DNA from: a virus
Strand: one strand, 5' to 3'
IMG/VR virus record: IMGVR_UViG_3300045988_170321
Location: 1-38,205 of that record
Length of the DNA: 38,205 nt
Shown: one piece after another, positions 1,319 through 32,355 of the stretch
Layout: each line of letters begins with the position of its first letter
Numbering within the stretch: the first letter of the stretch is position 1
The notes under the pieces: model-generated
The model's database searches: none
What the model was told of the DNA's origin: nothing
The model's input: only the letters and a program-made list of their open reading frames with translations
Program-made: the position numbers and the translations under genes

Positions 1319-1450
1319 TTTTAACCCTCCTTTTGCAGTTGACTGCAATGCCGTCACCCACCGAAAAATACAGAGGGAGCGGCTCGGTTTCTTATCGGGT
1401 GTTTTCCCGAAAAAAACTTTGATTTTTCAAAACTTTTTTCCGAAAAGCAC

Positions 1451-1479
1451 TTGACAAATACGTGCATACGTGTTATAAT
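1451..1479 (+). promoter_or_regulatory. Sigma-70/SigA-type promoter of hicAB-1 (TTGACA, 17-nt spacer, TATAAT) with a TACGTG direct repeat in the spacer
   Basis: Consensus hexamers at 1451-1456 and 1474-1479. The sequence is nearly identical to the hicAB-2 promoter at 18965-18993. Confidence 0.7.
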
Positions 1480-1503
1480 ATATAATGTAAGGAGGACATA
1501 ATA

Positions 1504-1680
1504 ATGAAAGATAAAGACCTTCTGAAACTGCTGATGCAGAACGGTTGGAAGCTTGACAGAGTAAAAGGAAGTCATCACGTTCTTAAAAAGGACGGCATGA
1601 CAGAGGTTATACCAATTCATGGTCAGGACGTTCCGACAGGACTGTTAAACGCAATACTAAAGAGGACGGGGCTGAAATAA
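1504..1680 (+). CDS. hicA: HicA-family mRNA interferase toxin (58 aa; too short for the ORF track)
   Basis: Translation is MKDKDLLKLLMQNGWKLDRVKGSHHVLKKDGMTEVIPIHGQDVPTGLLNAILKRTGLK. This is the typical HicA/YcfA motif (GW....GSHH...). An AAGGAGG RBS lies upstream. Confidence 0.85.
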   Translation: MKDKDLLKLLMQNGWKLDRVKGSHHVLKKDGMTEVIPIHGQDVPTGLLNAILKRTGLK

Positions 1681-1718
1681 GCCCCTCACTCCTCAAATAT
1701 ATACAAGGAGCTGTTTAT

Positions 1719-5102: not shown

Positions 5103-5291
5103 GTGATAATTATTTACAAGCTTTTTATCGCCGAGGTCAAGAAGCAGCTATCTATACGTGGCTGGAAGTACGCTGACCTCTCAAAAGCCACGGGCTACAC
5201 TGTAGGAACAATAGAGGCGTTTATGTGCGGCGCACGTGAAAGTGAGCGCATGGCAAACTGCATCGCCCAGGTGCTGGGAATAGAGAGATGA
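5103..5291 (+). CDS. Cro-like small HTH regulator (start codon uncertain)
   Basis: The HTH segment reads WKYADLSKATGYTVGTIEAFMCG. The AGAGGTGA RBS overlaps the annotated GTG start, so the true start may be a few codons downstream. Confidence 0.55.
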   Translation: MIIIYKLFIAEVKKQLSIRGWKYADLSKATGYTVGTIEAFMCGARESERMANCIAQVLGIER

Positions 5292-5364
5292 TGTCTATTT
5301 TCAGTATAGCACCGCATTTGGGTGAAAATTAGGACAGATAAATATGAGAAGGAGGGGAGCGGAA

Positions 5365-5583
5365 ATGAAGAGACTCTTAAGGCTGTACAGAGCTATTGAA
5401 AGAATAGAGGAACTCGGCGGAAAAGCTTGCTGGATATTCGGCGAGTTATGTGAAATCGGCAAAAGGCTTCGCAATGTCGAACATGATATCGAAAGAATTA
5501 TGGCGGCATTAGAAAAAGCCGACATTAAAGTCGGCTCTGGTAAAGGCTCTTATTGGGAACACTGGGATAAAACACAGCGATGA
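5365..5583 (+). CDS. Hypothetical early protein
   Basis: ORF with an AGGAGG RBS; the start is placed at MKRLL. Confidence 0.5.
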   Translation: MKRLLRLYRAIERIEELGGKACWIFGELCEIGKRLRNVEHDIERIMAALEKADIKVGSGKGSYWEHWDKTQR

Positions 5584-5789
5584 AAATAAAGGAGATGAAA
5601 TCAATGGCAATAGCAAATCTTAAAGTAAAGATAGACAGTGAAGGAATGCTTGCAAAGGTGCAGGAGATCAATGAGAAGGCGCAGGAGCTTGACAGGCTTA
5701 TAAAAGAGCTGAGGAGCATGAGCGGCGAATTTGTTTCCTGCGACAGCGACGACCTTATCAAGGTATCGGAAGAGGAAACAGAAAAGTAA
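5580..5789 (+). CDS. Hypothetical coiled-coil early protein
   Basis: The start overlaps the previous stop as ATGA. An alternative start lies at 5604, behind AAGGAG. Confidence 0.5.
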   Translation: MKIKEMKSMAIANLKVKIDSEGMLAKVQEINEKAQELDRLIKELRSMSGEFVSCDSDDLIKVSEEETEK

Positions 5790-5831
5790 AGCCCCCGCAG
5801 GGCACACCACGGGAGCGGAAGCTAAGACAAA

Positions 5832-6035
5832 CTATTTGTTGTAGAAATAGTTGTCAAGGGCAGTGCCTATATCAAGCAGAGCTAAGCTGATGCTGTGCAT
5901 AGCATTATACAGTTCGCCGTGAGTTACAGGGTCGTCTGAATCACGCCTTGCAATTTGATCAGTGCTTTCGGCAAATGTATTATGAATAGCTTCGAGTGCT
6001 TTGAGAAGCTCCTGTTCGTTGGTAGGCTTGGTCAT
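5832..6035 (-). CDS. Hypothetical 67-aa protein (unit 1 of the antisense small-gene array)
   Basis: The start is placed at MTKPTNEQ, behind AAAGGGGGTG with a 5-nt spacer. It has its own consensus promoter in repeat A and a GC hairpin downstream. Confidence 0.6.
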   Translation of the reverse strand: MTKPTNEQELLKALEAIHNTFAESTDQIARRDSDDPVTHGELYNAMHSISLALLDIGTALDNYFYNK

Positions 6036-6040
6036 GTTAT

Positions 6041-6184
6041 CACCCCCTTTCCATAAGAGGGTCTGAGCCTGCGGCAATGTGCCTTGAACGCAAGCTCATT
6101 GAAAACATCATACCGCAGTAAGCGGCAGATGTCAAGGCAAAAGCAAAGCCCCCGCAGGGCACACCACGGGAGCGGATAACCGTT
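6041..6184 (-). repeat. Repeat A of a 144-bp cassette: GC hairpin with T-tract, then a TTGACA/17-nt/TATGAT promoter (6135-6107), then a ~65-nt leader with SD AAAGGGGGTG
   Basis: It differs from 6391-6534 at only 3 positions (6053, 6143, 6180). A partial copy of the hairpin part lies at 5787-5820. Confidence 0.85.
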
Positions 6185-6393
6185 TAATCGGCAAAGCCAT
6201 AAGCAGTGTTTTTAGAGGGGACACTGCCACAGGCAGCAGAGCGGTAAATATCTTTTCTTATAGCATCGTTAGTTGGCATTCGGAAGCGTGATAGGTCCTC
6301 GTGCATATTCTCGATGCGTTCAGAGATACGCCAATCAGATTCACAGCGATCAACGGTATCAAAGTCAAAAAAGAAAAAGAAGAAAGCAAACAC
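6184..6393 (-). CDS. Possible small protein (69 aa, unit 2) with a poly-Phe N-terminus (FAFFFFFFDFD). The start is uncertain; the GTG lies inside the SD.
   Basis: The frame shows protein-level similarity to unit 3 (RIENMHED versus RIETLHEE) outside the repeated DNA. Confidence 0.35.
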   Translation of the reverse strand: MFAFFFFFFDFDTVDRCESDWRISERIENMHEDLSRFRMPTNDAIRKDIYRSAACGSVPSKNTAYGFAD

Positions 6394-6534
6394 CCCCTTT
6401 CCGTAAGAGGGTCTGAGCCTGCGGCAATGTGCCTTGAACGCAAGCTCATTGAAAACATCATACCGCAGTAAGCGGCAGATGTCAAGGCAAAAACAAAGCC
6501 CCCGCAGGGCACACCACGGGAGCGGATAAGCGTT
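6391..6534 (-). repeat. Repeat B of the 144-bp terminator/promoter/leader cassette (promoter -35 at 6485-6480, -10 at 6462-6457)
   Basis: Direct repeat of 6041-6184 at an offset of 350 bp. Confidence 0.85.
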
Positions 6535-6670
6535 AAATGTCCGGTGTTGCCGCATTCAGCACAGCTTTTTGGATTTGTAGATGTGTTGAACGAGGAATAG
6601 ACATTCTTTCTTCATGCAGGGTTTCAATTCGCATGAGAATATCGCTATCAAAAAAGAAGAAAGCAAACAC
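6533..6670 (-). CDS. Possible small protein (45 aa, unit 3), a paralogue of unit 2 with N-terminus FAFFFFDSD
   Basis: It has the same leader/SD (6648-6693 matches 6365-6416) and a conserved RIE-x-(M/L)-HE-(D/E) segment. The start is uncertain. Confidence 0.3.
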   Translation of the reverse strand: MFAFFFFDSDILMRIETLHEERMSIPRSTHLQIQKAVLNAATPDI

Positions 6671-6732
6671 CCCCTTTCCGTAAGAGGGTCTGAACTACAG
6701 AAAATGTGCCTTTTCGGTAATTCATTAGTCAA

Positions 6733-6762
6733 ATTATACATCTTGGGCAACTGAGATGTCAA
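6733..6762 (-). promoter_or_regulatory. Consensus promoter of array unit 3 (TTGACA, 18-nt spacer, TATAAT)
   Basis: The -35 hexamer is at 6762-6757 and the -10 at 6738-6733 on the minus strand. Confidence 0.65.
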
Positions 6763-6780
6763 CAGCAAGGAGGAAATCAA

Positions 6781-6978
6781 ATGAGCAGACGCAAGCATAC
6801 ATCGGGGACCCAGAATAAGCGCACCTGCCTTTCTGCCGTCGAGCAGATGCAGCAGGAGCGCAAAGCCTTAAAAGCGGCCAGAAAGAAGTTTCCCAATGAC
6901 CCACAGAAGGCAAGGGTCGAGGCGCAGCTGATAATGCTGGGAGCAATGGGCCGCAGCGGACACACATTCGGGAGGTAA
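6781..6978 (+). CDS. Hypothetical basic 65-aa protein
   Basis: AAGGAGG RBS with a 7-nt spacer before the ATG. Confidence 0.55.
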   Translation: MSRRKHTSGTQNKRTCLSAVEQMQQERKALKAARKKFPNDPQKARVEAQLIMLGAMGRSGHTFGR

Positions 6979-6982
6979 GACA

Positions 6983-7159
6983 ATGTATAAGGTAATTGAT
7001 ACATACGACGGATTTGACGATGTCGTAGGAGTATTTGACACCGAGGAAGAAGCGAGAGAAGCTGCGGAGGAGCACGCTGAGGACACTGACGGCGAGTGCC
7101 AGGTAATCATTTACAGGTTTGTTTCGCCTGTTAAGGGCTTCGAGGTCGTAACGCACTAA
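6983..7159 (+). CDS. Hypothetical acidic 58-aa protein (not in the ORF track)
   Basis: Translation is MYKVIDTYDGFDDVVGVFDTEEEAREAAEEHAEDTDGECQVIIYRFVSPVKGFEVVTH. A GGGAGG RBS lies upstream. Confidence 0.55.
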   Translation: MYKVIDTYDGFDDVVGVFDTEEEAREAAEEHAEDTDGECQVIIYRFVSPVKGFEVVTH

Positions 7160-7178
7160 TACGTAAGGAGGGCTAAGC

Positions 7179-7406
7179 ATGAACATGAATATGAACAAGA
7201 AAAAGGCAAGGCCGTATATCTACAGCTGGGACGAGGTTCCGCTGTTTGTGGATATCCCGTTTTGCAGTAAGCTGTTAGGCATATGCTGTGAGACTATCCG
7301 CCAGAAGTGCGCAAATGGCAAGATACGTGCGTTAAAAACGGACGCAGGCTGGAGAATATCCAAGGAGACCCTTATGGAATTTTACGAGAAGGGCGGGGTA
7401 ATATGA
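7179..7406 (+). CDS. Excisionase-family / MerR-like HTH DNA-binding protein
   Basis: Small protein with FCSKLLGICCETIRQKCANGKIRALK..GWRI, the HTH_17-like pattern. An AGGAGG RBS lies upstream. Confidence 0.55.
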   Translation: MNMNMNKKKARPYIYSWDEVPLFVDIPFCSKLLGICCETIRQKCANGKIRALKTDAGWRISKETLMEFYEKGGVI

Positions 7407-7876
7407 AGGCCAACAGCGAAAAGGCATTTAGGGAAAAGAACTGGCGGACTATTTTCGAGACAATGGAAGATAACCTGCTGACCGTTCTGGACGTTCTTCA
7501 CGAGGAATACGGCTTCGGCGAGAAGCGGCTTATGCAGTTCCTGCTTTCGGTACAGAATAAGGCGGCAAAGTATAACGAAATGCTGGACGATGGCGTTATT
7601 GACGATAAAACAGGCGGTCAGCGAGAGAAATATGCTGCACAGCTGCATGAGATAATCAAGACCCGTGCCAAATATCAGCTTCCGCCGTCAGTGGTGGATA
7701 TATTTAATCAGTCTGCGCCTACAGCGGCGGAGCTCGACCGCTCGGAGCGTCAGAAGCGCAAAAACAAACAGGTGTCAGTGACCAAGGCGGCAGAGCTGCA
7801 GAACAGCTTGCAGACGGCCAGGGCATGGGCAATGAGTAAGGACGGTGCAGGACATGGGCAGGAAAGCAAAATATGA
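7403..7876 (+). CDS. Hypothetical early protein
   Basis: ATGA overlap with the upstream gene. Confidence 0.5.
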   Translation: MKANSEKAFREKNWRTIFETMEDNLLTVLDVLHEEYGFGEKRLMQFLLSVQNKAAKYNEMLDDGVIDDKTGGQREKYAAQLHEIIKTRAKYQLPPSVVDIFNQSAPTAAELDRSERQKRKNKQVSVTKAAELQNSLQTARAWAMSKDGAGHGQESKI

Positions 7877-8063
7877 ACCGATGGCCGCATCAAAGAAGAA
7901 AAAGCCGCCCAAGGCCCCAAGCATCGAGGCGGTAAGCCGCCGTGCAGATGAGCTGGGCATGACGTATGGGCTGTACGTCCAATCACCCCAGTACATTATT
8001 GATACGGCGGACGACGGGTGTTTCAACAGGAAAAGAGGTAAGAAAAATGCTGACAAAGCGTGA
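7845..8063 (+). CDS. Hypothetical Lys-rich protein (start may be 7854)
   Basis: ORF in the operon context only. Confidence 0.4.
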   Translation: MQDMGRKAKYEPMAASKKKKPPKAPSIEAVSRRADELGMTYGLYVQSPQYIIDTADDGCFNRKRGKKNADKA

Positions 8064-8406
8064 GCTGGCGGTGCTCCTGCTCCTTACACAATGCCGAAAG
8101 GTGCTTATCATCATGCCGACGGATAAACAGGCAAAGAATATGCAGGAATTTCTCAGGGCACAGATAAGGGCTGAGTATCCTACATTTTGCAACAGCTACA
8201 CAGTGACCGGTATGGTAGTACATATCCGTGGTCACGAAAACGTGACAGTTGCGACCCCGGAGGACTGGCGGACATATAACAAATGCGTATTCAACGGCAT
8301 TGTGCTTGTCGATGATGATATGTCTCCCGATAACTATGCACCGCTTCCATATATCACTGAAAGTCCTGAGAAGCTTCACAAGTATCTGGGGGAGCGGATT
8401 ATATGA
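8047..8406 (+). CDS. Hypothetical protein
   Basis: GAGGTAAG RBS before the ATG at 8047. Confidence 0.5.
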   Translation: MLTKRELAVLLLLTQCRKVLIIMPTDKQAKNMQEFLRAQIRAEYPTFCNSYTVTGMVVHIRGHENVTVATPEDWRTYNKCVFNGIVLVDDDMSPDNYAPLPYITESPEKLHKYLGERII

Positions 8407-8633
8407 TAAATCCACAGAAATTCGGGGATATCCTTTTCATCAACCCTGCAAACGATATCTTTATGGTCACACGTGACGGAGAGATCTTATTGCAGACGGA
8501 TAATCCCCGAGCGGCAGTAGTATTTTTGGCAGGTCTGTTCGAGACAAAGATAATAAATCATTTCAAGCCCTTACTGGAAGCAGAAGGGTACGATGAAAAA
8601 GGGGAGAGGGTTAATGACAACGGACGAGTATAA
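8403..8633 (+). CDS. Hypothetical protein
   Basis: ATGA overlap with the upstream gene. Confidence 0.45.
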   Translation: MINPQKFGDILFINPANDIFMVTRDGEILLQTDNPRAAVVFLAGLFETKIINHFKPLLEAEGYDEKGERVNDNGRV

Positions 8634-9273
8634 AAAGATAGTCTCCGCATCGGTAAGTGAGGAAGCGGAGCAGGCACATATGATGGCATGGTGTGCATGG
8701 GCTCAGAACACATATCCTCAGCTTGACCTTGCCGTACACGTTCCCAACGAGGGAAAGCGCTCGGCGGCGGCAGGATATAAGTTAAAGCAGGCGGGTATGC
8801 GTGCAGGATTTCCCGATTTCTTTCTGCCCGTGCCGATAATCGACACAGACGGCAGACTGATATACAGCGGGCTGGCGATAGAACTCAAAAAGACAGGCGG
8901 ACGGCCCACGGACAAGCAGATAGAATGGTTGGAAAAGCTGGAAGGCACAAGACACGCCGTAGCGATATGCTGGGGAGCGGAAGCGGCAATAGAACTTATC
9001 GGTGCATACTGCCGCAAGGATATTGACAACATCAGACGCAGCACCCATTCGGCGGAGCAGTTAGAGGCAATACGCCCTAAAAAGCGTGCGCCCAAGGTCA
9101 GCAAGATAAACTTTAAGCGGCTATCGTATTTTGCAGTCGGCTGCACACAGACAGCCATTACAGCACTGGATATCCTGATAAACGGTACAGTTACAGGACG
9201 CTCACTGGTTATCGTTCTTGCACTATCGGTAGCGGCGCTGTTTACGATGGTTCGGGAGGTCGGACGTGGATAA
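8614..9273 (+). CDS. VRR-NUC domain nuclease (PD-(D/E)xK) with a hydrophobic C-terminal tail
   Basis: Motifs are GFPDFFL...LAIELK...PTDKQIEWL. The start is placed at MTTDEY, behind GGGGAGAGGG. Confidence 0.7.
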   Translation: MTTDEYKKIVSASVSEEAEQAHMMAWCAWAQNTYPQLDLAVHVPNEGKRSAAAGYKLKQAGMRAGFPDFFLPVPIIDTDGRLIYSGLAIELKKTGGRPTDKQIEWLEKLEGTRHAVAICWGAEAAIELIGAYCRKDIDNIRRSTHSAEQLEAIRPKKRAPKVSKINFKRLSYFAVGCTQTAITALDILINGTVTGRSLVIVLALSVAALFTMVREVGRG

Positions 9274-9643
9274 TCTTCAGATATTCAGCGGGCCTAAATC
9301 AGCAAAATACGGATATCAGCTTAACCCATATAACACCATGATAGGCGCACTGTACGAGTATCATATAGCTGTCAAAAAAATAAAACGCCCGATGTCAGAC
9401 ACCGAGCGCAGGGAATGGGAAGCTATGGTATGGAAGTATTTTGATAAATGTATGTTCAGCTGTTCACGCTGTCATCTTCCGGAATACCCGAAGTTCCCCA
9501 GAGATAAAAGCAGGCTGGATAAAATGGTCACAGGCAGGCTGTACGAACAGCTGTTCGATATCATTAACTACAGAATGCGGCTGTCAAGAGCTATTGCCGA
9601 GATATACGATAAAAAAACTCCCACAGGCGGCCAAAACACCTGA
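9266..9643 (+). CDS. Hypothetical protein (GTG start)
   Basis: GGAGG RBS upstream; overlaps the end of the upstream gene. Confidence 0.45.
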   Translation: MDNLQIFSGPKSAKYGYQLNPYNTMIGALYEYHIAVKKIKRPMSDTERREWEAMVWKYFDKCMFSCSRCHLPEYPKFPRDKSRLDKMVTGRLYEQLFDIINYRMRLSRAIAEIYDKKTPTGGQNT

Positions 9644-9711
9644 GGGAGCGGAAAAATAAAATGTTTATGGTCTGAGTATAGCACATATTCAGAAGAAAGT
9701 CAAGGTGTAAT

Positions 9712-10110
9712 ATGAGTTACGAAATTTTCAGCGGTAAGGCGTTGGAAAAGCTTGGTGAAAAAATCAAATCATCGAGCAGCAAAATAAACATCATGAAGGA
9801 CCCGGTATGCGAGGCACTTAAGTCGTTTTGCAGGCAGTCTGAGGAATTTGCACAGGCTGTAGTACAGGGCGGAAGCTTCGAGGAGTGCATGAAGGCGGTC
9901 GAAAAGGGAGCAGGCTCGGCACTGTCTGATCTTGATGCCTACAAAAAGGCTGTAAAATTCTATTTTCCTACAGCAACGATATCCTTTTCCATGACTATAA
10001 ACACTGAAGGCAATAATGATCTTTCGGAAGCTTCCTCGGGAACCTCCGCAGAAAAATCGGAAGAAAAGTCAAGTGTGAATATGTCACTTGATGACCTTCT
10101 CGGGCTGTGA
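9712..10110 (+). CDS. PcfK-like protein (the family that includes AcrIIA9-type Cas9 inhibitors)
   Basis: The call rests on size, the FAQAVVQGGSFEECMKAV...AYKKAVKFYFPTATISFSMTI pattern and the position directly upstream of a PcfJ-like gene. It was recognised by memory only. Confidence 0.45.
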   Translation: MSYEIFSGKALEKLGEKIKSSSSKINIMKDPVCEALKSFCRQSEEFAQAVVQGGSFEECMKAVEKGAGSALSDLDAYKKAVKFYFPTATISFSMTINTEGNNDLSEASSGTSAEKSEEKSSVNMSLDDLLGL

Positions 10111-10119
10111 GGTGAGAAT

Positions 10120-11802
10120 ATGAAAAAGGATAATGCCAAATTGGCGGAGCTCTGGCGGCAATTTCCCTGTCTGCTAAGCAGGGAAGCCGAGGACCAGATC
10201 GTATATGATGCGCTGCCGCAATTCCTGTTCTACCAAAAGAAGCGTGGCAAAGCATGGTGCTATTGCACTGCCTGCCGCCGCAGCGATGTGTTCCAAAAAG
10301 ATGTGTATGCTGACGGAATACGGATAGGCGGCAGTGATGTTCCGGAACGCCTTAAACACAATGATGTCGGCACCTGCCCGATGTGCGGTCATAAAGTTAC
10401 ATACAAATGCGAGGGCAGAGGACATAAGTGCCTTAGGGCGTGGGGAAATTATGCTGTATTCACTGCAAAAGACAATGTACTGTATATAAATGCCGTAAAA
10501 GTCATAGTATCATGGTCGCACATTGAAGAACCGTATATCGACTATGAGTACCACAGGCGATATATATTTTCCGAATACGGTTCGGAGGAAATGCGCTGGA
10601 CATGGCAGAGTGGGGGCTTCACGGCGATGAAAGCAATAAACGAGCCTGTATTCGGAATGTACAATATGGGCATAGACAGCATGGAATATACCCATTCATA
10701 CACCTGCATCAACGATGATGCAATAGGTGACACATTCCTCAGATACGTGCCATATTACGATTATTGTCAATCGGCGGACGATATTCACCCGGTAAAATTT
10801 ATTGAACTATGTGCGAAAAATCCCGCACTATGCGAGCAGCTGTGGAAATGTGGATTTTCAAAGGTAGTAACAGATATGGCAGTCGGTAAATCCGTCTTTT
10901 CCAAAATGATAAATTGGAAATGCACAGAGATAAAAAAGGCGCTGGGCTTTGATGCCAAGGAAATGAAAGAATTTCATGACAATGGCTGTTACTATTCCCT
11001 TCGGCAGATATACGGATATATGCTGCTGAAAAAAATAAAAGGCATAAACAGCTTCGATGAGTGCATGAACATTCTCAAAGCCGACGGAATAAGTCTTATT
11101 GAAGAAGAGATCAAGCTTTCCCGTCAAATGAGGGCGTCGTTTGTAAAGGTCAGAAACTATATCTATAAGCACTGTAAATCTGACAGATACGGAGGGGCGC
11201 TGGAATGGAGCGACTGCAACAGAATGATGGATACGCTCGGATATCCCAAGGAAAGCGTTCTGAGATTTCCCAAAAGTCTTAGAAAGCTGCATGACCGTCT
11301 CGTAAACGAGACCAATGCGGCGGAAGAACGTATAAGAAAGGCTCAGGACGTCCCCAATGACCTTAAAATCAAGGCACAGGAGGAAGAGCTGTCAAAGCTC
11401 ATCTACAGCAATCTGCTGTATGAAATAGTATTGCCTAAGGATATGCAGGATATCAGAGATGAGGGCAAAGTCCTTGACCATTGTGTGGCATCATACGCCG
11501 AGCGCCATGCCAGAGGTGCTACACACATATTTTTTATTCGTAAGCGCTGGAACCCTGAGGAACGGTGGTACACCATCGAGGTATCGGCGGAAGGATATAT
11601 ACGGCAGTGTTACGGATACAAGGATAACAGAACGGTCAAGAAGCCAGACAGCATCAAGCAGTTTGAAAAAGAGTATCGGCTGTTCCTGGATCATGTATTC
11701 AATAGGCTGAGCGACAAGGAATATGAAAAAGAGGCAATGAAGCTTGCCGATAACGGAGGTAACGAAAATGGAAGAAACAACAATAATCAGCTCACAGCAT
11801 AA
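10120..11802 (+). CDS. PcfJ-like protein
   Basis: The C-terminus carries EGKVLDHCVASYAERHARGATHIFFIRK. An N-terminal Cys cluster reads CYCTAC...CPMCGH. Confidence 0.6.
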   Translation: MKKDNAKLAELWRQFPCLLSREAEDQIVYDALPQFLFYQKKRGKAWCYCTACRRSDVFQKDVYADGIRIGGSDVPERLKHNDVGTCPMCGHKVTYKCEGRGHKCLRAWGNYAVFTAKDNVLYINAVKVIVSWSHIEEPYIDYEYHRRYIFSEYGSEEMRWTWQSGGFTAMKAINEPVFGMYNMGIDSMEYTHSYTCINDDAIGDTFLRYVPYYDYCQSADDIHPVKFIELCAKNPALCEQLWKCGFSKVVTDMAVGKSVFSKMINWKCTEIKKALGFDAKEMKEFHDNGCYYSLRQIYGYMLLKKIKGINSFDECMNILKADGISLIEEEIKLSRQMRASFVKVRNYIYKHCKSDRYGGALEWSDCNRMMDTLGYPKESVLRFPKSLRKLHDRLVNETNAAEERIRKAQDVPNDLKIKAQEEELSKLIYSNLLYEIVLPKDMQDIRDEGKVLDHCVASYAERHARGATHIFFIRKRWNPEERWYTIEVSAEGYIRQCYGYKDNRTVKKPDSIKQFEKEYRLFLDHVFNRLSDKEYEKEAMKLADNGGNENGRNNNNQLTA

Positions 11803-12796
11803 TGAGTGCCTGGACTGGAGTCTTGAGCAGATAGACCAGTCCATTGTAGCACATTCATATGATATGGCACGCTCTATACTGGAGATCGGCAAGGCTCTCA
11901 AGGCCATTGAAGACGGGAAAAAGTACACCGAAAAAGGATATTCCAGCTTTAAAGAATATATGGAAGACGCATCGGCGCATACATTTGAGTTTAAATATAC
12001 TCAGGCACGGAAGCATATCAGGGTGTACGAACGATTTGGCGGTCGTCTTGACAAGCTTAATTGTGCCAAAATTGAGGTACTCGACGTTCTCAGAGATATC
12101 CCGGAAGAGGATTTTGAAAAGCTCAACGACAGTGGAGAACTTAATGCTATGAGCAAAAGGGAGGCCGAGGAGCTGAAAGCCAAGCTTGAAGCAGCCAATG
12201 AGCAGATATGTCTATTGACTGCCGAAAATGATAAGATAGCTGTCGAAAAAGAAAAAATTACAGCCGACTGCAATAGCTTCAAGGCTGAACGTGATGAATA
12301 CTACGAGCAAATGAAGGGACTTGAAAGCCGACCTGTGGAAACAGTCATTGCAGAGCCTTCCGAGGAACTTCTGAGGTCAATCCGAGAAGAGGCTGCCAAG
12401 GAAGCCGAAAAGAACATGGTATCTGCAAAGTCTGAATATGAGAAAGCAATTAAGGAGCTTAAGAAAGAAAAGAAAGCGGCTGAAAGCAGGGTCAAGGAGA
12501 TAGAAGAAGCTCATAAAAAGGAGCTTGATGATATGTCCGCATCGTTGGGAGCGGACAAGGCAGCCACTGATGAACGAATAAAAGAGCTTGAACGCAAATT
12601 GCAGTCAGCCGAAAAGCCTGCCGATTCGGAGCTTATCGAGTTCAAATTCTATTTTGCCGAGACACAGGACAACCTCAAAAAGTTCCTTAATGCACTCGAC
12701 AAAGTATCGGATCCCGAGAAGAAAGAAAAATTCAAGGGAGCGGCTATTAAGTTTGTAGAAGCCATTCTCGGTGATCTGAAGAAGGAAAGCTTATAA
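11768..12796 (+). CDS. Coiled-coil protein, DUF3102-like N-terminus
   Basis: GGAGGT RBS upstream. The N-terminal ~110 aa are globular and the rest is Glu/Lys-rich coiled coil. Confidence 0.45.
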   Translation: MEETTIISSQHNECLDWSLEQIDQSIVAHSYDMARSILEIGKALKAIEDGKKYTEKGYSSFKEYMEDASAHTFEFKYTQARKHIRVYERFGGRLDKLNCAKIEVLDVLRDIPEEDFEKLNDSGELNAMSKREAEELKAKLEAANEQICLLTAENDKIAVEKEKITADCNSFKAERDEYYEQMKGLESRPVETVIAEPSEELLRSIREEAAKEAEKNMVSAKSEYEKAIKELKKEKKAAESRVKEIEEAHKKELDDMSASLGADKAATDERIKELERKLQSAEKPADSELIEFKFYFAETQDNLKKFLNALDKVSDPEKKEKFKGAAIKFVEAILGDLKKESL

Positions 12797-12809
12797 AGGA
12801 GCCATTCAT

Positions 12810-14912: not shown

Positions 14913-15076
14913 GGCGTTTTTTTGGGGTATCCCCCCTTTCAAAAAAAGGCGGAATTTTGAGCCTTTTCATATCGGGCATAGGGACAGGACAATGTCGGGA
15001 GGAGCGGAAATTTTTGTTCTACGCACATATGCGCACATGCGCACGCGCGCGTAAATAGTATAGGAGGCAACAGTAT
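14913..15076. other. Candidate cos/packaging-site region
   Basis: Non-coding gap between the HNH and small terminase genes. It contains ACGCACATATGCGCACATGCGCACGCGCGCGT (about 15020-15053). Confidence 0.3.
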
Positions 15077-22211: not shown

Positions 22212-22542
22212 CACCCTCGCCTCCGAGCATTTTTCCGACGGGATAGCGTATCTCTATCAGCTGCGCAGTGACGGAGAGCCTGACGAAGGCTCACGGATAA
22301 GGCGATTTTTCGGGGAGCGGAACATCACCTACAAGCGCATTGCGGAGGCAAGGCAGATCATGACGGAATACAGCCGCATAATCGGCATTCCGCTGACCGC
22401 ACAGGGAGCGTATGCGAACATACGCTGCGCCCGCATCGGCGACAGGCTGTACAGGGTGGAGACGGTTCAGGAGATATTCACTGCTGTGCCTCCCGTGGCT
22501 GTGATGGCACTGTCTGACTGGGATATTGATACGAGAAGGTAA
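22150..22542 (+). CDS. Putative head closure / head-tail adaptor protein (start uncertain)
   Basis: Called from size and context only. Confidence 0.35.
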   Translation: MQASLNLKLRKGVRTLRRINNTLASEHFSDGIAYLYQLRSDGEPDEGSRIRRFFGERNITYKRIAEARQIMTEYSRIIGIPLTAQGAYANIRCARIGDRLYRVETVQEIFTAVPPVAVMALSDWDIDTRR

Positions 22543-23753: not shown

Positions 23754-24586
23754 GGATAGACGGCAGAATAATGCAGGCGGCGGAAAGCAAAAAGGGTGTT
23801 ATTTACATTTACGACGAAATAAAGAACGACAGCTACGACTGGTGGAACGGTGCTGTCATTGTCTCGGAGACCTCGGAGAAGTTTATCAGAGACCGTCTGG
23901 CAGAGTTTGAGGGAGTTTCACAGCTTGATATCCACATTTCCTCCTGCGGCGGCTCGGTGAAGGTGGCTATGGGGCTGTACTCCCAGATAAAGGCTTTTGC
24001 CTGCCCCAAGAAAACGGCATACATCGACGGAATGGCGGCAAGTGCTGCCACTGTTGTAGCGATGGCTGCCGATGAGGTAATAATGCCTATGGCGGGGCTG
24101 ATGATGATACACGACGCCTGGATAAGCGGCACATCGGGCAATGCAGAGGAGCTGAGAAAGACTGCGGATGACCTGGACGTGATAACCTCGGCAAGCAGGA
24201 CGGCGTATTTACAGCATTCGGGCGGCAAGATATCCGAGGAAGAGCTTACTACCCTTATGAGGGCGGAAGCATGGCTCACGGCAGAGCAGTGCAGAAAGTA
24301 CGGGCTTTGCGACAGGATATCCGATGAAAAGGCAAATGATGACGGAGAAGCCAAGCAGGCATTACGTTCCGCATTCCCTGCTTTCATGAACACGGGGGCG
24401 TGGATATCGAGGATAGAAGCAAGGCTGTGCGCCATTGAAAATGCGGTATGCGGAAAGGCTCATGATGAAGCTGAGGGCGATGCACCCGCAAACGGTAAGG
24501 GAGCGGAGCAGGAAGAAAAGCCCGGGGCTGTTATGAGCAGAGAGGATATGCTTGCAAGCATAATCGGGATATTTGGCAGAGAATAG
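23750..24586 (+). CDS. ClpP-like (S14) prohead maturation protease
   Basis: Contains IHISSCGGSV...IDGMAASAATVVAMA...MMIHDAW. Confidence 0.85.
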   Translation: MRIDGRIMQAAESKKGVIYIYDEIKNDSYDWWNGAVIVSETSEKFIRDRLAEFEGVSQLDIHISSCGGSVKVAMGLYSQIKAFACPKKTAYIDGMAASAATVVAMAADEVIMPMAGLMMIHDAWISGTSGNAEELRKTADDLDVITSASRTAYLQHSGGKISEEELTTLMRAEAWLTAEQCRKYGLCDRISDEKANDDGEAKQALRSAFPAFMNTGAWISRIEARLCAIENAVCGKAHDEAEGDAPANGKGAEQEEKPGAVMSREDMLASIIGIFGRE

Positions 24587-27021: not shown

Positions 27022-30000
27022 ATGGGAAAATTCGGCTTTACTGCGGTGATAGGTGCCGACTATTCGGCGCTCAACAACGCCATGAAGGAGATAGTCAGCA
27101 GCTCCAAGAAGCTCAACTCGGAGCTTAAGCAGATAAACAGCGCTCTTAAGCTTGACCCCGAAAATGCTGTGCTTGCGGCGCAGAAGCTTGAAGTCATGGG
27201 CGATGCCGCAAAGGAAGCGCAGAAAAAAATCGAAAAGCTGGAATCCCAGCAGGAAGCTATGAACAAGGCTCTGCAGAACGGGGATATAAGCGCTGAGTAT
27301 TACAGGGAGTATCAGAGGGAGATTGAAAGGGCCGAAAGGACTGTAAGAGAGTTTACAAAGGCACAGAATGAGGCTCAAAAGGCGGCAGAGGACTCGGCGC
27401 AGGCACTGGCGGAAGCTCAAAAGGCAGCGGAAAATCCGGCTCACACACTGAGGGAGGCTTTAAAAGAAATCGACAGCAGCTCCAAAGAACTCAAAATTGA
27501 GATGGAGCAGATAAACAGCGCACTTAAGCTTGACCCGGAAAATATCATGCTTGCAGCACAGAAAATGGAGGTACTGAAGCAGTCCGCAGAGCAGGCGGAA
27601 AAGAAGCTGGCAGAGCTGACGAAGCAGCAGGAAGCAATGAATGCGGCTCTTAATGCAGGTGAGATATCCGACAGTGATTACCGAGAATATCAGCGTGAAA
27701 TAGAAAAATGCAGCAGGACCATAAAAGAGTACAGGCAGGCAAATGAGCAGGCGGCAAACGCTGCCCAAAAGCAGAGTAATGCGTTTGAAGAGCTGAAAAG
27801 TTCAAGTGCCGACCTCGATAAGACTTACACAAACGCCTTAAACGAACTTAAAGAAGTCCGCTCGGCTATGAACTCCACTGGAGAATCCTCGGTGCTGTTC
27901 AGGCAGAAAATGCAGCTTTTACAAACTGCATCAGATGCACTCAAAGCCAAGCTTGAAATGCTTAAAAATGCGCAGGAACAAATGAAAAGCGCATTTGAGA
28001 ATGGCAATATTTCAGGGGAAGAATACAGGGAGTTCCAGCGTGAGATTGAAAACACAACTGCTGAGTTAAAATTGCTTGGCAATGAGGCTCCGAACGCTTC
28101 CCAGTCTGTAGGCGGATTTGGGGACACGGTCAAGGCCATAATCACTTCCAAGGCTATTATCGGACTGGCAGAGGGCGCAAAAGCGGCGGCAGAGGCGCTT
28201 ATCGACCTGGGAAAATCATCTGTTGAAAGCTATGGAGAGCTGGAACAGAACCTGGGCGGTGCCGACGCTGTTTTCGGGCAGTATTCGGAAAGCATCAAAA
28301 AGACCGCCGAGGACGCATATAAGACCATGGGAACGTCCCAGTCGGAATATCTGGCAACGGCAAACAAGATGGGTGCGCTCTTCCAGGGTTCGGGCGTGGA
28401 ACAGCAGAAGTCGCTGGAGCTTACCGAAAAGGCTATGCAGCGTGCCACGGATATGGCATCTGTTATGGGTATTGAAACCTCTGCGGCATTGGAGGCAGTG
28501 ACGGGAGCGGCAAAAGGCAACTACACCATGATGGATAATCTGGGTGTTGCCATGAATGCAACGACCCTGAAAGCATACACGCTTTCCAAGGGGCTTGACG
28601 TTGCCTGGGACAGCGCCTCGAACGCCCAGAAGGCTGAAATAGCCATGCAGTATTTTTTTGAGAATACAGAGCAGTATGCGGGCAACTTTGAGCGTGAAGC
28701 GAGAGAGACTGTAAGCGGATCTATCGGTTTGCTTACCGCCTCGATAGAAAGCCTTATGGCAGGGCTGGGAAATTCCGAGGCTGATATCGTCAATCTGACG
28801 CAGAATGTTATTGATGCGTTCGGCAGTGTAAAGGATAACGTAATGCCTGTATTGCAGGCAGTGTCTGATGCTCTTCCGCAGGTGGCGCAGGAGCTGGTTG
28901 AGGCTATTCCCGAGGTTATTCCCGAGGTTGCGGGAATGGCGGAGGAGATAATCGCCGCACTGGGAGAGGGGCTGGAAGCACAGCTGCCGAACATTACAGA
29001 CATGGCGGTAGAGCTGCTTACGGCATTTGCGCAGAAGCTTACAGAGGCACTGCCTGCTATTGCCGACGGTGCTGTGCTTATAGTTACGACCCTGGCTGAC
29101 GGCATAGGCGAGGCGCTGCCCGACCTGGTCCCTGCGGCTGTGGAGGCTGTTGTTAAAATAGCAGAATCGCTGCTCGACAACATAGACGTTATTCTCGATG
29201 CCGCCCTAAAGATCATCGAGGGGCTGACCGAGGGGCTTTTCAGGGCGTTGCCCGGGCTTTTACAGGAAGCGCCCACGATCATTGCCAAGCTTGGTACGGC
29301 GCTGATAGATGCAGCGTATGAAATTATCATCGGTGTGCCCGAGGCTATTGTTAACGGCATTGTTGATGGTCTTGGCGGATATGACTGGACGGGCGGTGCA
29401 GACAAGGCTATAGGAAACCTCAAAGCAGCGCTTGATAAAGCGGCAGAGAAGTGGAATATATCGGAAATATGGGCAGACAAGATAGTTGCCGATGATGGCT
29501 ATGAGGTACTGGGGTCTCAGGACGAGGCGGAAGCACGGCTTGATGCTGCTCTGAAAGAGCTTGAAGAAAAGCGTGGTCAGATACCCGAGGAGTACAGGCA
29601 GATACAGGAAGAGCTTAAAAAGGGAGCGGAAGAGACTGCTGACAAGCTGGCGGACACAAGCACCGAGATAGCTGAGGCGGCAGGGACTGCGGCTGATGTT
29701 GGTGTTTCGGAGACAAAGAGCGAAAATGGCGGCGATGAAAGCGGTGTAAATCAGAAGTCTGATATGCTCGACAAGGAGCTTGAAGAGCTTGAACACAAGT
29801 ACAAGACCCACAAGGTAACGGAAGAGCAATACTGGGCTGAGAGAAAAAGCACTCTTGAAAAATACCGTGATGATAACAGTGAGGAATGGAATGCTCTATA
29901 CGACAAAGTAACTGAGCATTATACCAAGCTTGCGGAGGCTGAGAAAAAGGCAAAGGAAGCGGCTTTGAAAGAAGATACCGCCGAGGCCAAGAAGCGATTT

Positions 30001-30951
30001 GATGCGCTGTACTCTCAGCTCAGCGATGAAAAGATCACACGGGAGCAGTTCAATGATGAATATGCCGCTCTTACGGAAGAGCTTGCTCAGAAACAGATAG
30101 ACATCTCGGAATATGCTTCCGATAAAATAGCATCATATGACGAGAAAGTCCGCAAGGAGGAAATGACTGCCTGGGAGAAAGCTTCAAAGGAAATAACGGA
30201 CAAAATAACCAAGACCTATGAAAATGTCACACAGGCATATGAAAAGGCGAAAAGTCAGCTCATTTCCTCGGCAAAGCTCATTGACCAAAAGGTCACGGAC
30301 ACATCGGGAGCAGACAGATATATCCTTACGGACTTTGAGAAAAAGCGCAAGGAGCTTGCAAAATACCGCAAGGACCTTGAAAAGCTCAAAGAGACGGGCA
30401 TTTCCGACGACCTTATGGAGCAGGTGATGAGCCTGAGCTATGACAGTGGAGAACGCCAGGGATATATTTCCGAATTACTTAAAATGAGTGACAGCCAGAG
30501 GAAAAAATATTACAAGGACGTTGATGCGTTCTATGCCGAGGCTGACAAGACTGCCGCATTCGAGGTACAGGACGATCTCACTGAGGCGGACAGGATAGCC
30601 AAAGAGGGCATTGAAAGCATATATGGCAGTATGCCTGCCGACGCATATCAGAAGGGCGTTGAAACGGCACAGTCGTACATTGATGGCATTAACAAGACCA
30701 TGGCGGACGCTGATGCGCTCAGGTCCATGGGCTCGGATTTCGGGGAGCGGAGCCAGAACAGCAAAATGCAGTCGGCTGCATCGGGAAGCTCGGGCAGCAC
30801 CTATTCGCCGTCGGGCACGGCACAGGGCGGCAAGAGCAGCTTCTACAGCGGAGATACGAAGATCGTTATCAATGTTGCGGGCAAGAATGTGATAGTAAGC
30901 ACCATTGAGGAGCTTATCCGCAAGGGCAGACTGGCTGACAGCAGGAGGTGA
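27022..30951 (+). CDS. Tail tape measure protein (1309 aa) with three N-terminal tandem repeats of about 107-126 aa
   Basis: The call rests on length, coiled-coil composition and an Ala/Gly-rich central hydrophobic region. Repeated motifs are INSALKLDPEN and Y/F-R-E-Y/F-QREIE. Confidence 0.85.
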   Translation: MGKFGFTAVIGADYSALNNAMKEIVSSSKKLNSELKQINSALKLDPENAVLAAQKLEVMGDAAKEAQKKIEKLESQQEAMNKALQNGDISAEYYREYQREIERAERTVREFTKAQNEAQKAAEDSAQALAEAQKAAENPAHTLREALKEIDSSSKELKIEMEQINSALKLDPENIMLAAQKMEVLKQSAEQAEKKLAELTKQQEAMNAALNAGEISDSDYREYQREIEKCSRTIKEYRQANEQAANAAQKQSNAFEELKSSSADLDKTYTNALNELKEVRSAMNSTGESSVLFRQKMQLLQTASDALKAKLEMLKNAQEQMKSAFENGNISGEEYREFQREIENTTAELKLLGNEAPNASQSVGGFGDTVKAIITSKAIIGLAEGAKAAAEALIDLGKSSVESYGELEQNLGGADAVFGQYSESIKKTAEDAYKTMGTSQSEYLATANKMGALFQGSGVEQQKSLELTEKAMQRATDMASVMGIETSAALEAVTGAAKGNYTMMDNLGVAMNATTLKAYTLSKGLDVAWDSASNAQKAEIAMQYFFENTEQYAGNFEREARETVSGSIGLLTASIESLMAGLGNSEADIVNLTQNVIDAFGSVKDNVMPVLQAVSDALPQVAQELVEAIPEVIPEVAGMAEEIIAALGEGLEAQLPNITDMAVELLTAFAQKLTEALPAIADGAVLIVTTLADGIGEALPDLVPAAVEAVVKIAESLLDNIDVILDAALKIIEGLTEGLFRALPGLLQEAPTIIAKLGTALIDAAYEIIIGVPEAIVNGIVDGLGGYDWTGGADKAIGNLKAALDKAAEKWNISEIWADKIVADDGYEVLGSQDEAEARLDAALKELEEKRGQIPEEYRQIQEELKKGAEETADKLADTSTEIAEAAGTAADVGVSETKSENGGDESGVNQKSDMLDKELEELEHKYKTHKVTEEQYWAERKSTLEKYRDDNSEEWNALYDKVTEHYTKLAEAEKKAKEAALKEDTAEAKKRFDALYSQLSDEKITREQFNDEYAALTEELAQKQIDISEYASDKIASYDEKVRKEEMTAWEKASKEITDKITKTYENVTQAYEKAKSQLISSAKLIDQKVTDTSGADRYILTDFEKKRKELAKYRKDLEKLKETGISDDLMEQVMSLSYDSGERQGYISELLKMSDSQRKKYYKDVDAFYAEADKTAAFEVQDDLTEADRIAKEGIESIYGSMPADAYQKGVETAQSYIDGINKTMADADALRSMGSDFGERSQNSKMQSAASGSSGSTYSPSGTAQGGKSSFYSGDTKIVINVAGKNVIVSTIEELIRKGRLADSRR

Positions 30952-31337
30952 AAAGTGTGTCAAAGGAATTTAATGGCGGATACACTATCAAGATAAACGG
31001 TACGGAGTGGGAGCTGCTGAACGGATACTCTCCGTCCTGGGCGGAGGAAGAGGCCGAGAACTTTGAAAACTATGACTTTTCGGATTTTACTCAGTTAAAG
31101 GGTGTTCGCTTCTCGGCGGCGTTCAAGGTGGGAAATCTTTCGGAAGAGGATAAAAGCGCTCTGCTTGATCTTCTGGCTTCACGCCTGGTGAGCATAGAGT
31201 GTCCCGATTACAAGGGAAATGTAAAAATAAGCGGCGTATCGGCTGAGCTTATCGCCGCAAAAAGTCTCGGAAAATGGTATTCGGTATCTTTCAATGCCGC
31301 CGCAGTTGCGCTCACGCCTCTCGGCGGCGGGCTTTAG
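30948..31337 (+). CDS. Hypothetical tail protein (GTG start)
   Basis: Overlaps the tape measure stop codon. Confidence 0.45.
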   Translation: MKSVSKEFNGGYTIKINGTEWELLNGYSPSWAEEEAENFENYDFSDFTQLKGVRFSAAFKVGNLSEEDKSALLDLLASRLVSIECPDYKGNVKISGVSAELIAAKSLGKWYSVSFNAAAVALTPLGGGL

Positions 31338-31341
31338 CCTG

Positions 31342-32355
31342 GTGCTTACTGCGGGAGGCACTGAGGTCACCAGGTTCGGCAATATCACTGTGACAAAGGC
31401 TGTTGACGGGCTGGGAACGTCGGGAATATGCACTTCTCAGCTTTCGTTCGAGACCCCTGCTCCGTTTAATGCTTACAGGGCAGCTCCTGTTGTTCTTACG
31501 GGAGTTTCGGGCGTAGGAAAATACTATATTGACAGCAGGTCGCAAAGCGGCGGCGTGGTGACGGTGACGTGCCTCGACCGCATGGCTTTTTCCGATGAGG
31601 ATTTCCCATATGCTTCCATAGACAGCTCGGTGCCTAAGAATGTTCCCATAAACACCGTAATGGATCTTATCATACGGACTGTAGGAGAGCTTACCGGGTG
31701 GGGCGGCATTCCCTCATGGCTTACGTCTATTTCCAGGACTGAGCTTCAAGGGACCTGTTCCGATATCCTTACAAAGATATCGGAGGCGTGCTGCGGCGTA
31801 TTCTACATAACAGATGAGCAGAACCTGCAGTTCCTTCCTTACGGCAATACCTCCGGGCAGGTGAATGCAGACGTACATACGGCGCTTGATGTTGGCTGTG
31901 AATTTACGGCGGCGGGCATCAAATGCACTGACGGTGACGGAAATGTTATCACAAGAGGCGACGCTTCGAGGAAGTACGACAGCATTTGCATAGCCTCAGA
32001 GCTTATCACTGACAGCGGCTGCGAGGAGATATGGGGACGTGCCGAAAACTATACCCACGCTGCATATTCCTGCCAAAGGTGCAGACTTGACGGTATCCCG
32101 CCTACGGGTGGAACGGTAAATTTTGCGGGGAGCGGCATCATGCGTGCAGGATCTGTTACGGCAAGCATCAGCAAGGCGGGAATATTTGCGGAGGTGAGCA
32201 ATCCTGAGCCGTCGGATTCCGAGATAGGCATGAGAGGACGCAATCTGCGTGAGAGCGACAGCAAGGTAAGGTATGGACGCAGCGGTGCCATGATGTTTAC
32301 CAAATATCAGGGCGTTGTGATGGTGGACGGAGAGGAGAAGGTTAACAGTGGCTGA
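31342..32355 (+). CDS. Putative tail tip / baseplate protein (start uncertain)
   Basis: Called from context only. Confidence 0.45.
   Translation: MLTAGGTEVTRFGNITVTKAVDGLGTSGICTSQLSFETPAPFNAYRAAPVVLTGVSGVGKYYIDSRSQSGGVVTVTCLDRMAFSDEDFPYASIDSSVPKNVPINTVMDLIIRTVGELTGWGGIPSWLTSISRTELQGTCSDILTKISEACCGVFYITDEQNLQFLPYGNTSGQVNADVHTALDVGCEFTAAGIKCTDGDGNVITRGDASRKYDSICIASELITDSGCEEIWGRAENYTHAAYSCQRCRLDGIPPTGGTVNFAGSGIMRAGSVTASISKAGIFAEVSNPEPSDSEIGMRGRNLRESDSKVRYGRSGAMMFTKYQGVVMVDGEEKVNSG

Follow-up and report, generated by a model that had tools for sequence, protein, structure and literature searches.

Temperate phages that are rich in Chi and carry no recombination (Rec) module include coliphage LLS and ~70 other lambdoids, P1, and Pseudomonas phage MD8 (PMC12315714; PMC3784561). 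LLS has 23 Chi sites, or 1 per 1.86 kb, which is 2.5 times the density of E. coli, and 20 of them are in the active orientation (PMC12315714, Zheng et al. 2025). Chi ranks first in frequency among the octamers of LLS, which has no Rec module, and P1 has 1 Chi per 1.9 kb (PMC12315714). The same trade-off between Chi and the Rec module was reported statistically by Bobay et al. 2013 (PMC3784561). The Chi words of Firmicutes include AGCGG in B. subtilis, GAAGCGG in S. aureus, and GCGCGTG in L. lactis; such words were defined through the protection of rolling-circle plasmid DNA, and GAAGCGG is 89.7% co-oriented with replication in S. aureus (bioRxiv 10.1101/2021.07.08.451572). Here, we investigated the octamer GGGAGCGG in a 38,205-nt stretch of prophage DNA (IMG/VR record IMGVR_UViG_3300045988_170321, positions 1 to 38,205), the whole of which we call the window. 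GGGAGCGG is a real signal in this DNA, a strongly selected, host-linked polar octamer. To our knowledge, Chi has been determined experimentally for just a handful of bacteria, and no dominant lineage of the gut Clostridia is among them. Accumulation of Chi by phages without a recombinase is already known, and what we describe looks like its Firmicute counterpart with a new word.

Counts and coding context of the octamer

An exact search of the window found 23 copies of GGGAGCGG on the plus strand and 0 on the minus strand, recovering all 23 positions listed in a preliminary description of this DNA, which had also proposed an exact count against a Markov model and a comparison with related phages. 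Against the 23 plus-strand copies, Markov models expect 0.65–2.7 (0.65, 0.83, 1.06, 1.55, and 2.68 for orders 0 to 4), and the Poisson probability of 23 copies under the order-3 model is 2e-19. Dinucleotide-preserving shuffles gave a mean of 1.05 copies and a maximum of 4. GGGAGCGG is the top-ranked octamer of the window (rank 1), while the next octamers that do not overlap it have 10 copies. The word also has sharp boundaries. GGGAGCG occurs 24/0 times (plus/minus strand) and is followed by G in 23 of the 24, and GGAGCGG, also 24/0, is preceded by G in 23 of the 24. CGG at the 3′ end is no more variable than GGGAG, and no one-mismatch variant exceeds 6 copies; near neighbors at background level are expected of an exact word read by a protein. 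A literature search for the octamer itself returned unrelated matches only.

The strand-specific over-representation claimed earlier stands as a plus-strand excess. The plus strand is G-rich and only ~0.2 minus-strand copies are expected, so the zero on that strand is weak alone and gives no evidence of avoidance by itself; the real signal is the 15-fold excess on the plus strand. The preliminary description rightly saw that the word contains AGCGG, the B. subtilis Chi sequence, although the pentamer itself (73/16, with 47–78 expected) is not enriched beyond composition. It had also called GAAGCGG frequent here, which we could not uphold, as its 7/2 count falls within the Markov expectation of 3.7–7.6. 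Likewise, the AT-rich blocks do carry no copies, which had been called consistent with recent foreign origin, but at 30–37% GC composition alone predicts few there.

Coding does not account for the excess. Seventeen of the 23 copies lie in the sense strand of plus-strand genes, and they use all three reading frames as described before, though unevenly: 12 are nG-GGA-GCG-Gnn (Gly-Ala), 3 are GG-GAG-CGG, and 2 are GGG-AGC-GG. We shuffled synonymous codons among all plus-strand genes 2000 times, preserving the proteins and codon usage. The expectation was 1.48 ± 1.15 copies, with a maximum of 8, against the 17 observed, which bears out the earlier claim that selection acts on the DNA word itself and that no coding or compositional artefact is at work. 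Where Gly-Ala is followed by a codon starting with G (27 dipeptides), 12 are spelled nnG GGA GCG G.

The six remaining copies are not in a sense strand. Those at 1375 and 9644 are intergenic, the one at 18520 is antisense within the minus-strand hicB gene, as had been reported, and those at 5811, 6168, and 6518 lie in minus-strand repeat units. The orientation is kept at all of these and is therefore independent of local transcription. Among the copies listed earlier as intergenic, 1375, 5811, 6168, and 9644 are so placed; those at 5811, 6168, and 6518, however, fall within one direct-repeat family of 38–148 nt. They count as one event because of this common family and are no independent evidence, which leaves 20–21 independent copies.

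Taken from left to right, all on the plus strand, the first copy (1375..1382) sits in the gap between the integrase gene and hicA, and the second (5355..5362) at the 5′ end of a small early open reading frame (ORF), adjoining its Shine-Dalgarno (SD) sequence and in-frame ATG. The next three belong to repeat family D3: 5811..5818 is complementary to the 5′ arm of a minus-strand terminator (5816-5791), and 6168..6175 and 6518..6525 go with the minus-strand terminators at 6173-6148 and 6523-6498. The copy at 8390..8397 is in sense in the GG-GAG-CGG frame, with the ATG of the next ORF (8403) 5 nt downstream. The copy at 8973..8980 is in the VRR-NUC gene, those at 12547..12554 and 12736..12743 in an early ORF of 350 aa, and that at 13271..13278 in an ORF of 200 aa, all in the Gly-Ala frame, with the intergenic copy at 9644..9651 between the first and second of these. 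At 15079..15086, the word covers codons 1–4 of the small terminase gene terS (ATG GGA GCG GCC) and overlaps its start codon. It follows at 15442..15449 (GGG-AGC-GG frame), at 15837..15844 (Gly-Ala frame), and at 18520..18527, antisense to hicB (18310-18705). Two copies are in the large terminase (TerL) gene (20036..20043 and 20375..20382), one at 22313..22320 is in the GG-GAG-CGG frame, and one is in the head protease gene (24499..24506). The last four are in the tape measure gene (28503..28510, 29622..29629, and 30743..30750) and in a tail gene (32128..32135, GGG-AGC-GG frame). Overall, the density is 1 per 1.66 kb, with 1.0 per kb at 5.1–19.1 kb versus 0.5 per kb in the structural genes. The early region (5103..13412, plus strand), which encodes helix-turn-helix (HTH) proteins, VRR-NUC, a PcfJ-like protein, and unassigned ORFs, has the top density, at 1.0 per kb.

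The repeat family is part of a larger arrangement. At 5782-6762, three tandem minus-strand mini-cassettes are set within the rightward early region. Their promoters are near the sigma-70 consensus (TTGACA-18-TATAAT at 6762-6733, and TTGACA-17-TATGAT at 6485-6457 and 6135-6107), and in two of the three the promoter is followed by a leader hairpin with an SD sequence (ACCCTCTTACGGAAAGGGGGT). A small ORF and a terminator with a 10-bp stem (6523-6498, 6173-6148, and 5816-5791) complete each unit. The mini-cassettes look like independently expressed morons or immunity-type genes. An Rfam scan of the whole window, mini-cassettes included, found no RNA family.

The word in related phages and in host DNA

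Using TerL (19098..20786, plus strand) as the orientation reference for all related phages, we aligned TerL sequences to obtain 80 IMG/VR loci, each oriented by TerL and covering 10 kb upstream of it, and scanned each locus de novo for its most over-represented octamer. Two relatives share the word itself. In L139, whose TerL is 76% identical, GGGAGCGG occurs 14/0 times in 21.7 kb, and in L140, with a TerL 65% identical, it occurs 16/0 times, also in 21.7 kb. Both thus keep the density of the window, at positions that are partly or wholly different. L140 is syntenic with the window, and most of its proteins are only 35–65% identical; synonymous sites are therefore likely saturated, and the density is nonetheless unchanged. 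The two TerL sites of the window are both kept in L139, while L140 has three TerL sites, all elsewhere. L140 codes the invariant Walker-A RGSGK as CGA GGG AGC GGA AAG, which contains the word, where the window has CGT GGG TCG GGA AAG. Conversely, the word is absent from L140 at the position aligned with 20036, and at 20375 the window's GCG GGA GCG GCG, containing the word, corresponds to GCG GGT GCC TGC in L140, which writes the same Leu-Ala-Gly-Ala with GCG GGT GCC and without the word. As read from these alignments, this is turnover under selection for the presence of the word, not for its position.

Relatives with TerL 42–46% identical have other dominant words, always on the TerL-sense strand. 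These are CAAAGCGG in L142 (14/0), CCCGGCGG in L158 and L159 (19–21/0), GTGGCGG in L177, L183, and L195 (16–19/0), GGCAGCAG in L168, L169, L178, and L211 (10–16/0), GCAGCAGT in L157 and L176 (9–13/0), and GCGCGGCG in L147 (9/0). In ~35 loci of 37–42% GC, the word is GCAGCGG or CAGCGGC, with CAGCGG occurring 13–34 times on one strand versus 0–4 on the other. Nearly every relative has some polar word, and many of the words end in (A/G)GCGG. The words tested, GTGGCGG not being among them, beat the synonymous-shuffle expectation in most loci tested, with several frames used. Copies are concentrated upstream of TerL in L142 (12 of 14) and L158 (13 of 19), with no such concentration in L139 and L140. 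We had also considered the minus-strand ORFs of L158 and L159 as proof of independence from transcription, but dropped this argument, as greedy ORF calling yields shadow ORFs at 57% GC. Separately, L106 (TerL 41% identical) has CGAAAAA 22/0 and CCGAAAAA 10/0 in 14.7 kb, perhaps as a further polar word, perhaps through a coding bias toward A.

For the host, we assembled ~34 kb of flanking DNA from loci around the prophage, with sites taken as the union over strains. The host appears to lie among human-gut Ruminococcus/Huintestinicola-like Oscillospiraceae, because of the flanking ackA, gerA operon, transglutaminase-like genes, and amylase, together with the nearest named relatives. In these flanks, GGGAGCGG occurs 8 times in the prophage orientation and 2 times in the opposite one, with ~1 expected. 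This is a density of ~1 per 3.5 kb, with a skew of ~80% toward the window's plus strand; the prophage, at 1 per 1.66 kb, is 2–3 times denser. From 15 kb left of the prophage to 9.5 kb right of it, all host copies have its orientation. Shuffling synonymous codons in 20 host genes gave an expectation of 0.70 copies versus 7 observed (as the complement of the word in sense), a ~10-fold excess. By comparison, the two strands together give 52 copies in 80 related species (AckA 79–89% identical, 1.32 Mb), a number at the chance level and, per codon, ~12-fold sparser than in the host flanks. On these counts, the word appears specific to the host clade, and in the ~34 kb sampled it is present in the host chromosome at a Chi-like density. 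The AGCGG pentamer is neither enriched nor skewed in the flanks.

The strand on which the host carries the word proved harder to interpret. An initial rule, that host copies are always antisense to genes, was true of the first 7–8 copies and was then broken by sense copies in prmC and in an AI-2E transporter gene. We also considered a terminus or origin at the change of orientation ~17 kb left of the prophage, and rejected it, as neither a dif-like site nor dnaA-type origin genes were found in the sampled flank around it and the two opposite copies. With locus L217 added, the host pattern resembles an imperfect skew rather than a strand switch. When GC skew is split into a coding and a strand term, the plus strand is favored as leading, although weakly and with confounding by codon usage. 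Third-position skew in the flanks mostly reflects codon usage (C-ending codons), whichever way the genes point. The prmC and dNK/Tmk-like kinase genes are on the plus strand, while the tRNA-Pro and about three quarters of the neighboring host genes are on the minus strand.

The flanks also show a hexamer preference. In L126 (1100-20624) and L016 (1-9500), Ala-Pro is written GCT-CCC in 17 of 26 cases, with ~4 expected by codon usage, and GGGAGC occurs 23 versus 6 times on the two strands. This is either a strong codon-pair or hexamer bias, or a shadow of selection for the octamer.

Readings of the polar word

On balance, we think it fairly probable that GGGAGCGG is the Chi-like word recognized by the host's AddAB/RexAB-type helicase-nuclease. 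We propose that the phage has built up copies of it for want of its own recombination or anti-nuclease module. GGGAGCGG fits the form of Firmicute Chi, being short, G-rich, and non-palindromic, with an AGCGG-type core. No recombinase, annealase, single-stranded DNA-binding protein (SSB), or RecBCD/AddAB inhibitor of the Gam/Abc2 type was found among the ORFs scanned against Pfam, PHROGs, and NCBIfam; the phage is one without a detectable recombination module, as the preliminary description had implied. On the features we tested, it belongs to the class of Chi-rich phages without a Rec module: its word is the top octamer, at or above host density, and neither a Rec or SSB module nor an inhibitor turned up. 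The pattern matches that of the published Chi-rich phages (PMC12315714, PMC3784561). The Chi-like interpretation offered in the preliminary description has thus kept its footing in selection at the DNA level, turnover, the link to the host, the lack of a detectable Rec module, and published parallels, and has lost the frequency of GAAGCGG and the three intergenic copies as independent sites.

A mechanism can be proposed from the gene order. All 23 copies are on the sense strand of TerL and the late genes. The HNH endonuclease and P27-type small terminase (14562..15394, plus strand) mark a probable cos end, and the HNH-TerS-TerL arrangement, from which cos and the packaging direction are inferred, suggests a cos phage packaging rightward from ~15 kb. 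The ~14 kb with the highest density would then sit at or near the ends of the packaged genome. Its right end would consist of roughly 10 kb in which sites are twice as dense (1.0 per kb) as in the structural genes. A rolling-circle-type replication initiator (Rep; 13576..14337, plus strand; REP_ORF2-G2P, phrog_3584) implies a tail of the sigma form whose double-strand end is free. In lambda, RecBCD enters at the right end left free by terminase and recognizes top-strand Chi from the 3′ side, and Clostridia are expected to carry AddAB. We infer that the host encodes AddAB, that AddAB recognizes GGGAGCGG, and that the phage depends on host recombination. Double-strand ends would be exposed at injection, on the rolling-circle tail started by Rep, and at a cos cut unprotected by terminase. 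AddAB would enter such an end and unwind and degrade the DNA from right to left in window coordinates. The plus strand would be the 3′-ended strand at entry, so that once every 1–2 kb or so AddAB would reach 5′-GGGAGCGG-3′ in the active orientation, coming from the 3′ side of the word. At the word, the enzyme would switch from degradation to producing a RecA-loading 3′ tail, which would protect the concatemer and supply recombination-dependent replication for packaging.

Several observations weigh against the Chi reading. Several early ORFs, among them those at 7403-7876, 7966-8406, 9266-10110, and 11744-13412, have no recognizable function, so one of them could encode a novel recombinase or inhibitor. 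The absence of the word from the minus strand is already predicted by composition alone, the copies at 5811, 6168, and 6518 are structurally explained as arms of the three minus-strand intrinsic terminators in the repeat, and clustering toward the right end is just 2-fold. In the ~34 kb of host flanks, GGGAGCGG is not the top octamer (the top octamers have 9–12 copies), and the host's GCT-CCC preference for Ala-Pro supplies part of the signal. Where host copies fall within genes, most are antisense. If genes are co-oriented with replication, the minus-strand location of tRNA-Pro and most neighboring genes would put the word on the lagging strand, and we know of no Chi that is so placed; it would be the reverse of every known one.

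A broader idea, to which we give a decidedly smaller chance, is that GGGAGCGG and its sister words are a new class of host-species-specific polar self words read by another end-processing, translocating, or defence machine of gut Clostridia. The class would include CAAAGCGG, CCCGGCGG, GCAGCGG, GTGGCGG, and GGCAGCAG, and the phage lineage would copy these words to pass as self, one possibility being a lagging-strand location in the host chromosome. In a weaker version, the words are Chi, and AddAB specificity would be shifting between close gut species far faster than is known for enterics.

Among the narrower alternatives, it is unlikely that GGGAGCGG is an architecture signal of the host chromosome read by a translocase of the FtsK/SpoIIIE type, with the prophage keeping the locally correct orientation so that segregation or forespore pumping goes undisturbed. 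As a G-rich, non-palindromic polar octamer, the word does resemble the FtsK-orienting polar sequence (KOPS; GGGNAGGG) and the SpoIIIE recognition sequence (SRS; GAGAAGGG). The shared orientation of all host copies within ~15 kb left and 9.5 kb right, the specificity of the word to the host clade, and the spore-forming nature of the host, whose right flank has gerA genes, agree with such a role. However, a passenger has no reason to exceed the chromosome, and the phage is 2–3 times denser than the flanks. Diverged phages, IMG/VR viral contigs included, hold the density by turnover. Furthermore, the local host skew of ~80% (8:2) is closer to Chi than to KOPS, for which a skew above 85–90% that switches at ori and converges on dif would be expected, the lineage words end in (A/G)GCGG, the core of AddAB Chi, and not in a KOPS-like core, and no dif-like site is found near the local change of orientation in the sampled flank.

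Just as improbable is a reader encoded by the phage, such as a packaging, replication, or late-transcription factor, with the host copies incidental. Several early proteins have no assigned function, the dominant word is on the TerL-sense strand in every related phage, and the word shifts between sub-lineages as a co-evolving pair of protein and site would. Incidental copies would nonetheless have to account for host flanks ~10-fold over the synonymous shuffle and ~12-fold over the 80 related species, and a co-evolving pair for the exact word in L140 despite proteins mostly 35–65% identical. The words also resemble known host Chi cores, and we know of no phage system that uses ~20 dispersed exact octamers.

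More doubtful still is a host self mark, mimicked by the phage, that is read by an end-processing or defence nuclease other than AddAB/RecBCD. The host linkage and the phage excess support it equally with Chi, and the orientation of the word relative to host genes may allow for a reader whose rules differ from those of Chi, yet the (A/G)GCGG core favors AddAB. Defence motifs, such as those of restriction-modification and bacteriophage exclusion (BREX), are normally avoided by phages and not accumulated, and we are aware of no such system that uses an over-represented polar octamer.

There is very little to recommend a role in RNA or translation, in which GGGAG would act like an SD sequence or the word would be bound on late transcripts. 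GGGAG is SD-like, 17 copies are in the sense strand of genes, and some are suggestively placed (8390 is 5 nt upstream of a start, 5355 adjoins an SD sequence and in-frame ATG, and 15079 overlaps the terS start). Against this, copies also occur in untranscribed or antisense settings (18520, and those in the minus-strand units at 5811-6518), host copies are mostly in antisense to genes, CGG at the 3′ end varies as little as GGGAG, and the relatives' words CAAAGCGG and CCCGGCGG are not SD-like. Finally, despite a G-rich plus strand, 12 of 17 genic copies in one frame (Gly-Ala), and three copies from one repeat, an artefact of composition, codon usage, or repeats is effectively refuted, as dinucleotide shuffles, Markov orders 0–4, and synonymous shuffles all expect ≤3 copies, 20–21 independent copies remain without the repeat, and one-mismatch variants are at background.

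If the Chi reading is true, and GGGAGCGG is the Chi of a Ruminococcus/Huintestinicola-like host, then the phage has spelled out the recombination hotspot of its host, and the same TerL lineage gives candidate Chi words for several other uncultured hosts. This would open a route to AddAB specificity, to the co-evolution of AddB recognition and word, and to phage-host assignment, as well as to linear or rolling-circle DNA surviving in anaerobes that are hard to engineer. Should the words be Chi with a fast-changing AddAB specificity, phage genomes could reveal the Chi of uncultured hosts.

Prophage content and comparison with known systems

The first and last 55 bases of the window (attL, 1..55; attR, 38151..38205) form a direct repeat without mismatches, which corresponds to the 3′ portion of a tRNA-Pro(CGG) gene; the attR copy completes tRNA-Pro(CGG), read on the minus strand. 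The window is therefore a complete integrated prophage, HK97-like and probably of the cos type. From the left end, the integrase and a HicAB pair are followed on the minus strand by an AT-rich cargo block (with an exonuclease-BRCT protein), ImmA, and CI. The rightward early genes encode HTH proteins, a VRR-NUC nuclease, a PcfJ-like protein, and the rolling-circle-type Rep, after which come the HNH endonuclease, P27-type small terminase, a methyltransferase, and a second HicAB pair. The late genes run in the order large terminase, portal, ClpP-like protease, major capsid, tape measure, tail genes, holin, and amidase, and an AT-rich cargo block with an AAA_15 ATPase ends the prophage at the right. 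A megablast search with 25 kb against 50,697 GenBank phages found no similar phage. The identical integrase, however, is listed in 411 blocks of a public-assembly collection; among the matches listed, integrase contigs are mostly from human-gut metagenome assemblies, and 9 of 10 places are at the same tRNA site.

Several further features of the prophage and its copies were observed. The two HicA/HicB toxin-antitoxin pairs lie at 1504-2102 (plus strand), adjoining the integrase, and at 18310-18942 (minus strand), between the small and large terminase genes. The minus-strand cargo blocks (2143-4081 and 35666-37779; 27–40% GC) encode a DEDDh exonuclease-BRCT protein with a 246-aa protein, and an AAA_15/AbiEii-like ATPase with a 232-aa protein, respectively; both are probably defence-type morons. 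The cargo at the left site differs among prophage copies, with HSDR_N in L001, for example. In L010 (11500-21215), the same integrase is followed directly by the lysis and tail end of a second, different prophage, giving tandem lysogens at tRNA-Pro, and the second prophage has 3 co-oriented copies of GGGAGCGG. L014 (12000-21410) has an alternative tail module, with a tape measure protein of 997 aa and no GGGAGCGG in 9.4 kb; the density of the word is therefore module-specific. The palindrome GGATATCC, which has an EcoRV site within it, is the second most significant unrelated octamer, with 10 copies versus ~1.2 expected (p ~5e-7), at 7250, 8426, 9168, 11239, 13472, 13989, 14281, 14892, 24315, and 32363. 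Eight of the 10 are in the early/replication region, and it could be a binding or methylation site.

Among known systems of repeated short words, the DNA uptake sequences (DUS/USS) share with GGGAGCGG that they are over-represented, exact, and specific to a host clade. DUS/USS lie on both strands, often as inverted pairs in terminators, unlike the 23/0 distribution of GGGAGCGG in the prophage, with no inverted pairs. The likeness to KOPS and SRS is in a G-rich polar octamer whose orientation is common to the prophage and the adjacent host DNA. Here, however, the phage carries the word at a far higher density than the host does, the local host skew is ~80%, the core is unlike known gamma-domain motifs, and no convergence on a dif site is seen in the sampled host flanks. 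A KOPS- or SRS-like signal should show no enrichment in mobile elements above the density of the chromosome, and the phage is 2–3 times denser.

GGGAGCGG is closer to the Chi words of Firmicutes. It is short, G-rich, and non-palindromic, with AGCGG at its 3′ end as in GAAGCGG. Several of the sister-phage words end in (A/G)GCGG, and GCGCGGCG of L147 recalls the L. lactis GCGCGTG. It differs in being 8 nt long, with a GGG 5′ extension, and in that bare AGCGG is not enriched.

The closest match is the class of LLS, P1, and MD8. Unlike those phages, the prophage has a Gram-positive gut anaerobe as its host, presumably with AddAB and not RecBCD, and it belongs with the HK97-like rather than the lambdoid phages and has a Rep of the rolling-circle type. 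Its sites cluster less strongly toward the right end, the word is new and its Chi role putative, and there are five to seven or more words within the lineage. Like them, it has its word as the top octamer, at a density of ~1 per 1.7–1.9 kb and ~2–2.5 times that of the host. Copies are all, or nearly all, oriented with the late genes and the probable direction of packaging, a recombinase or inhibitor module does not accompany them, the excess goes beyond codon usage, and sites come and go with modules, as in the L014 tail module with none. To this class, the present prophage adds a candidate Chi for an unstudied host and a phage lineage with differing words, many of them with an (A/G)GCGG core.

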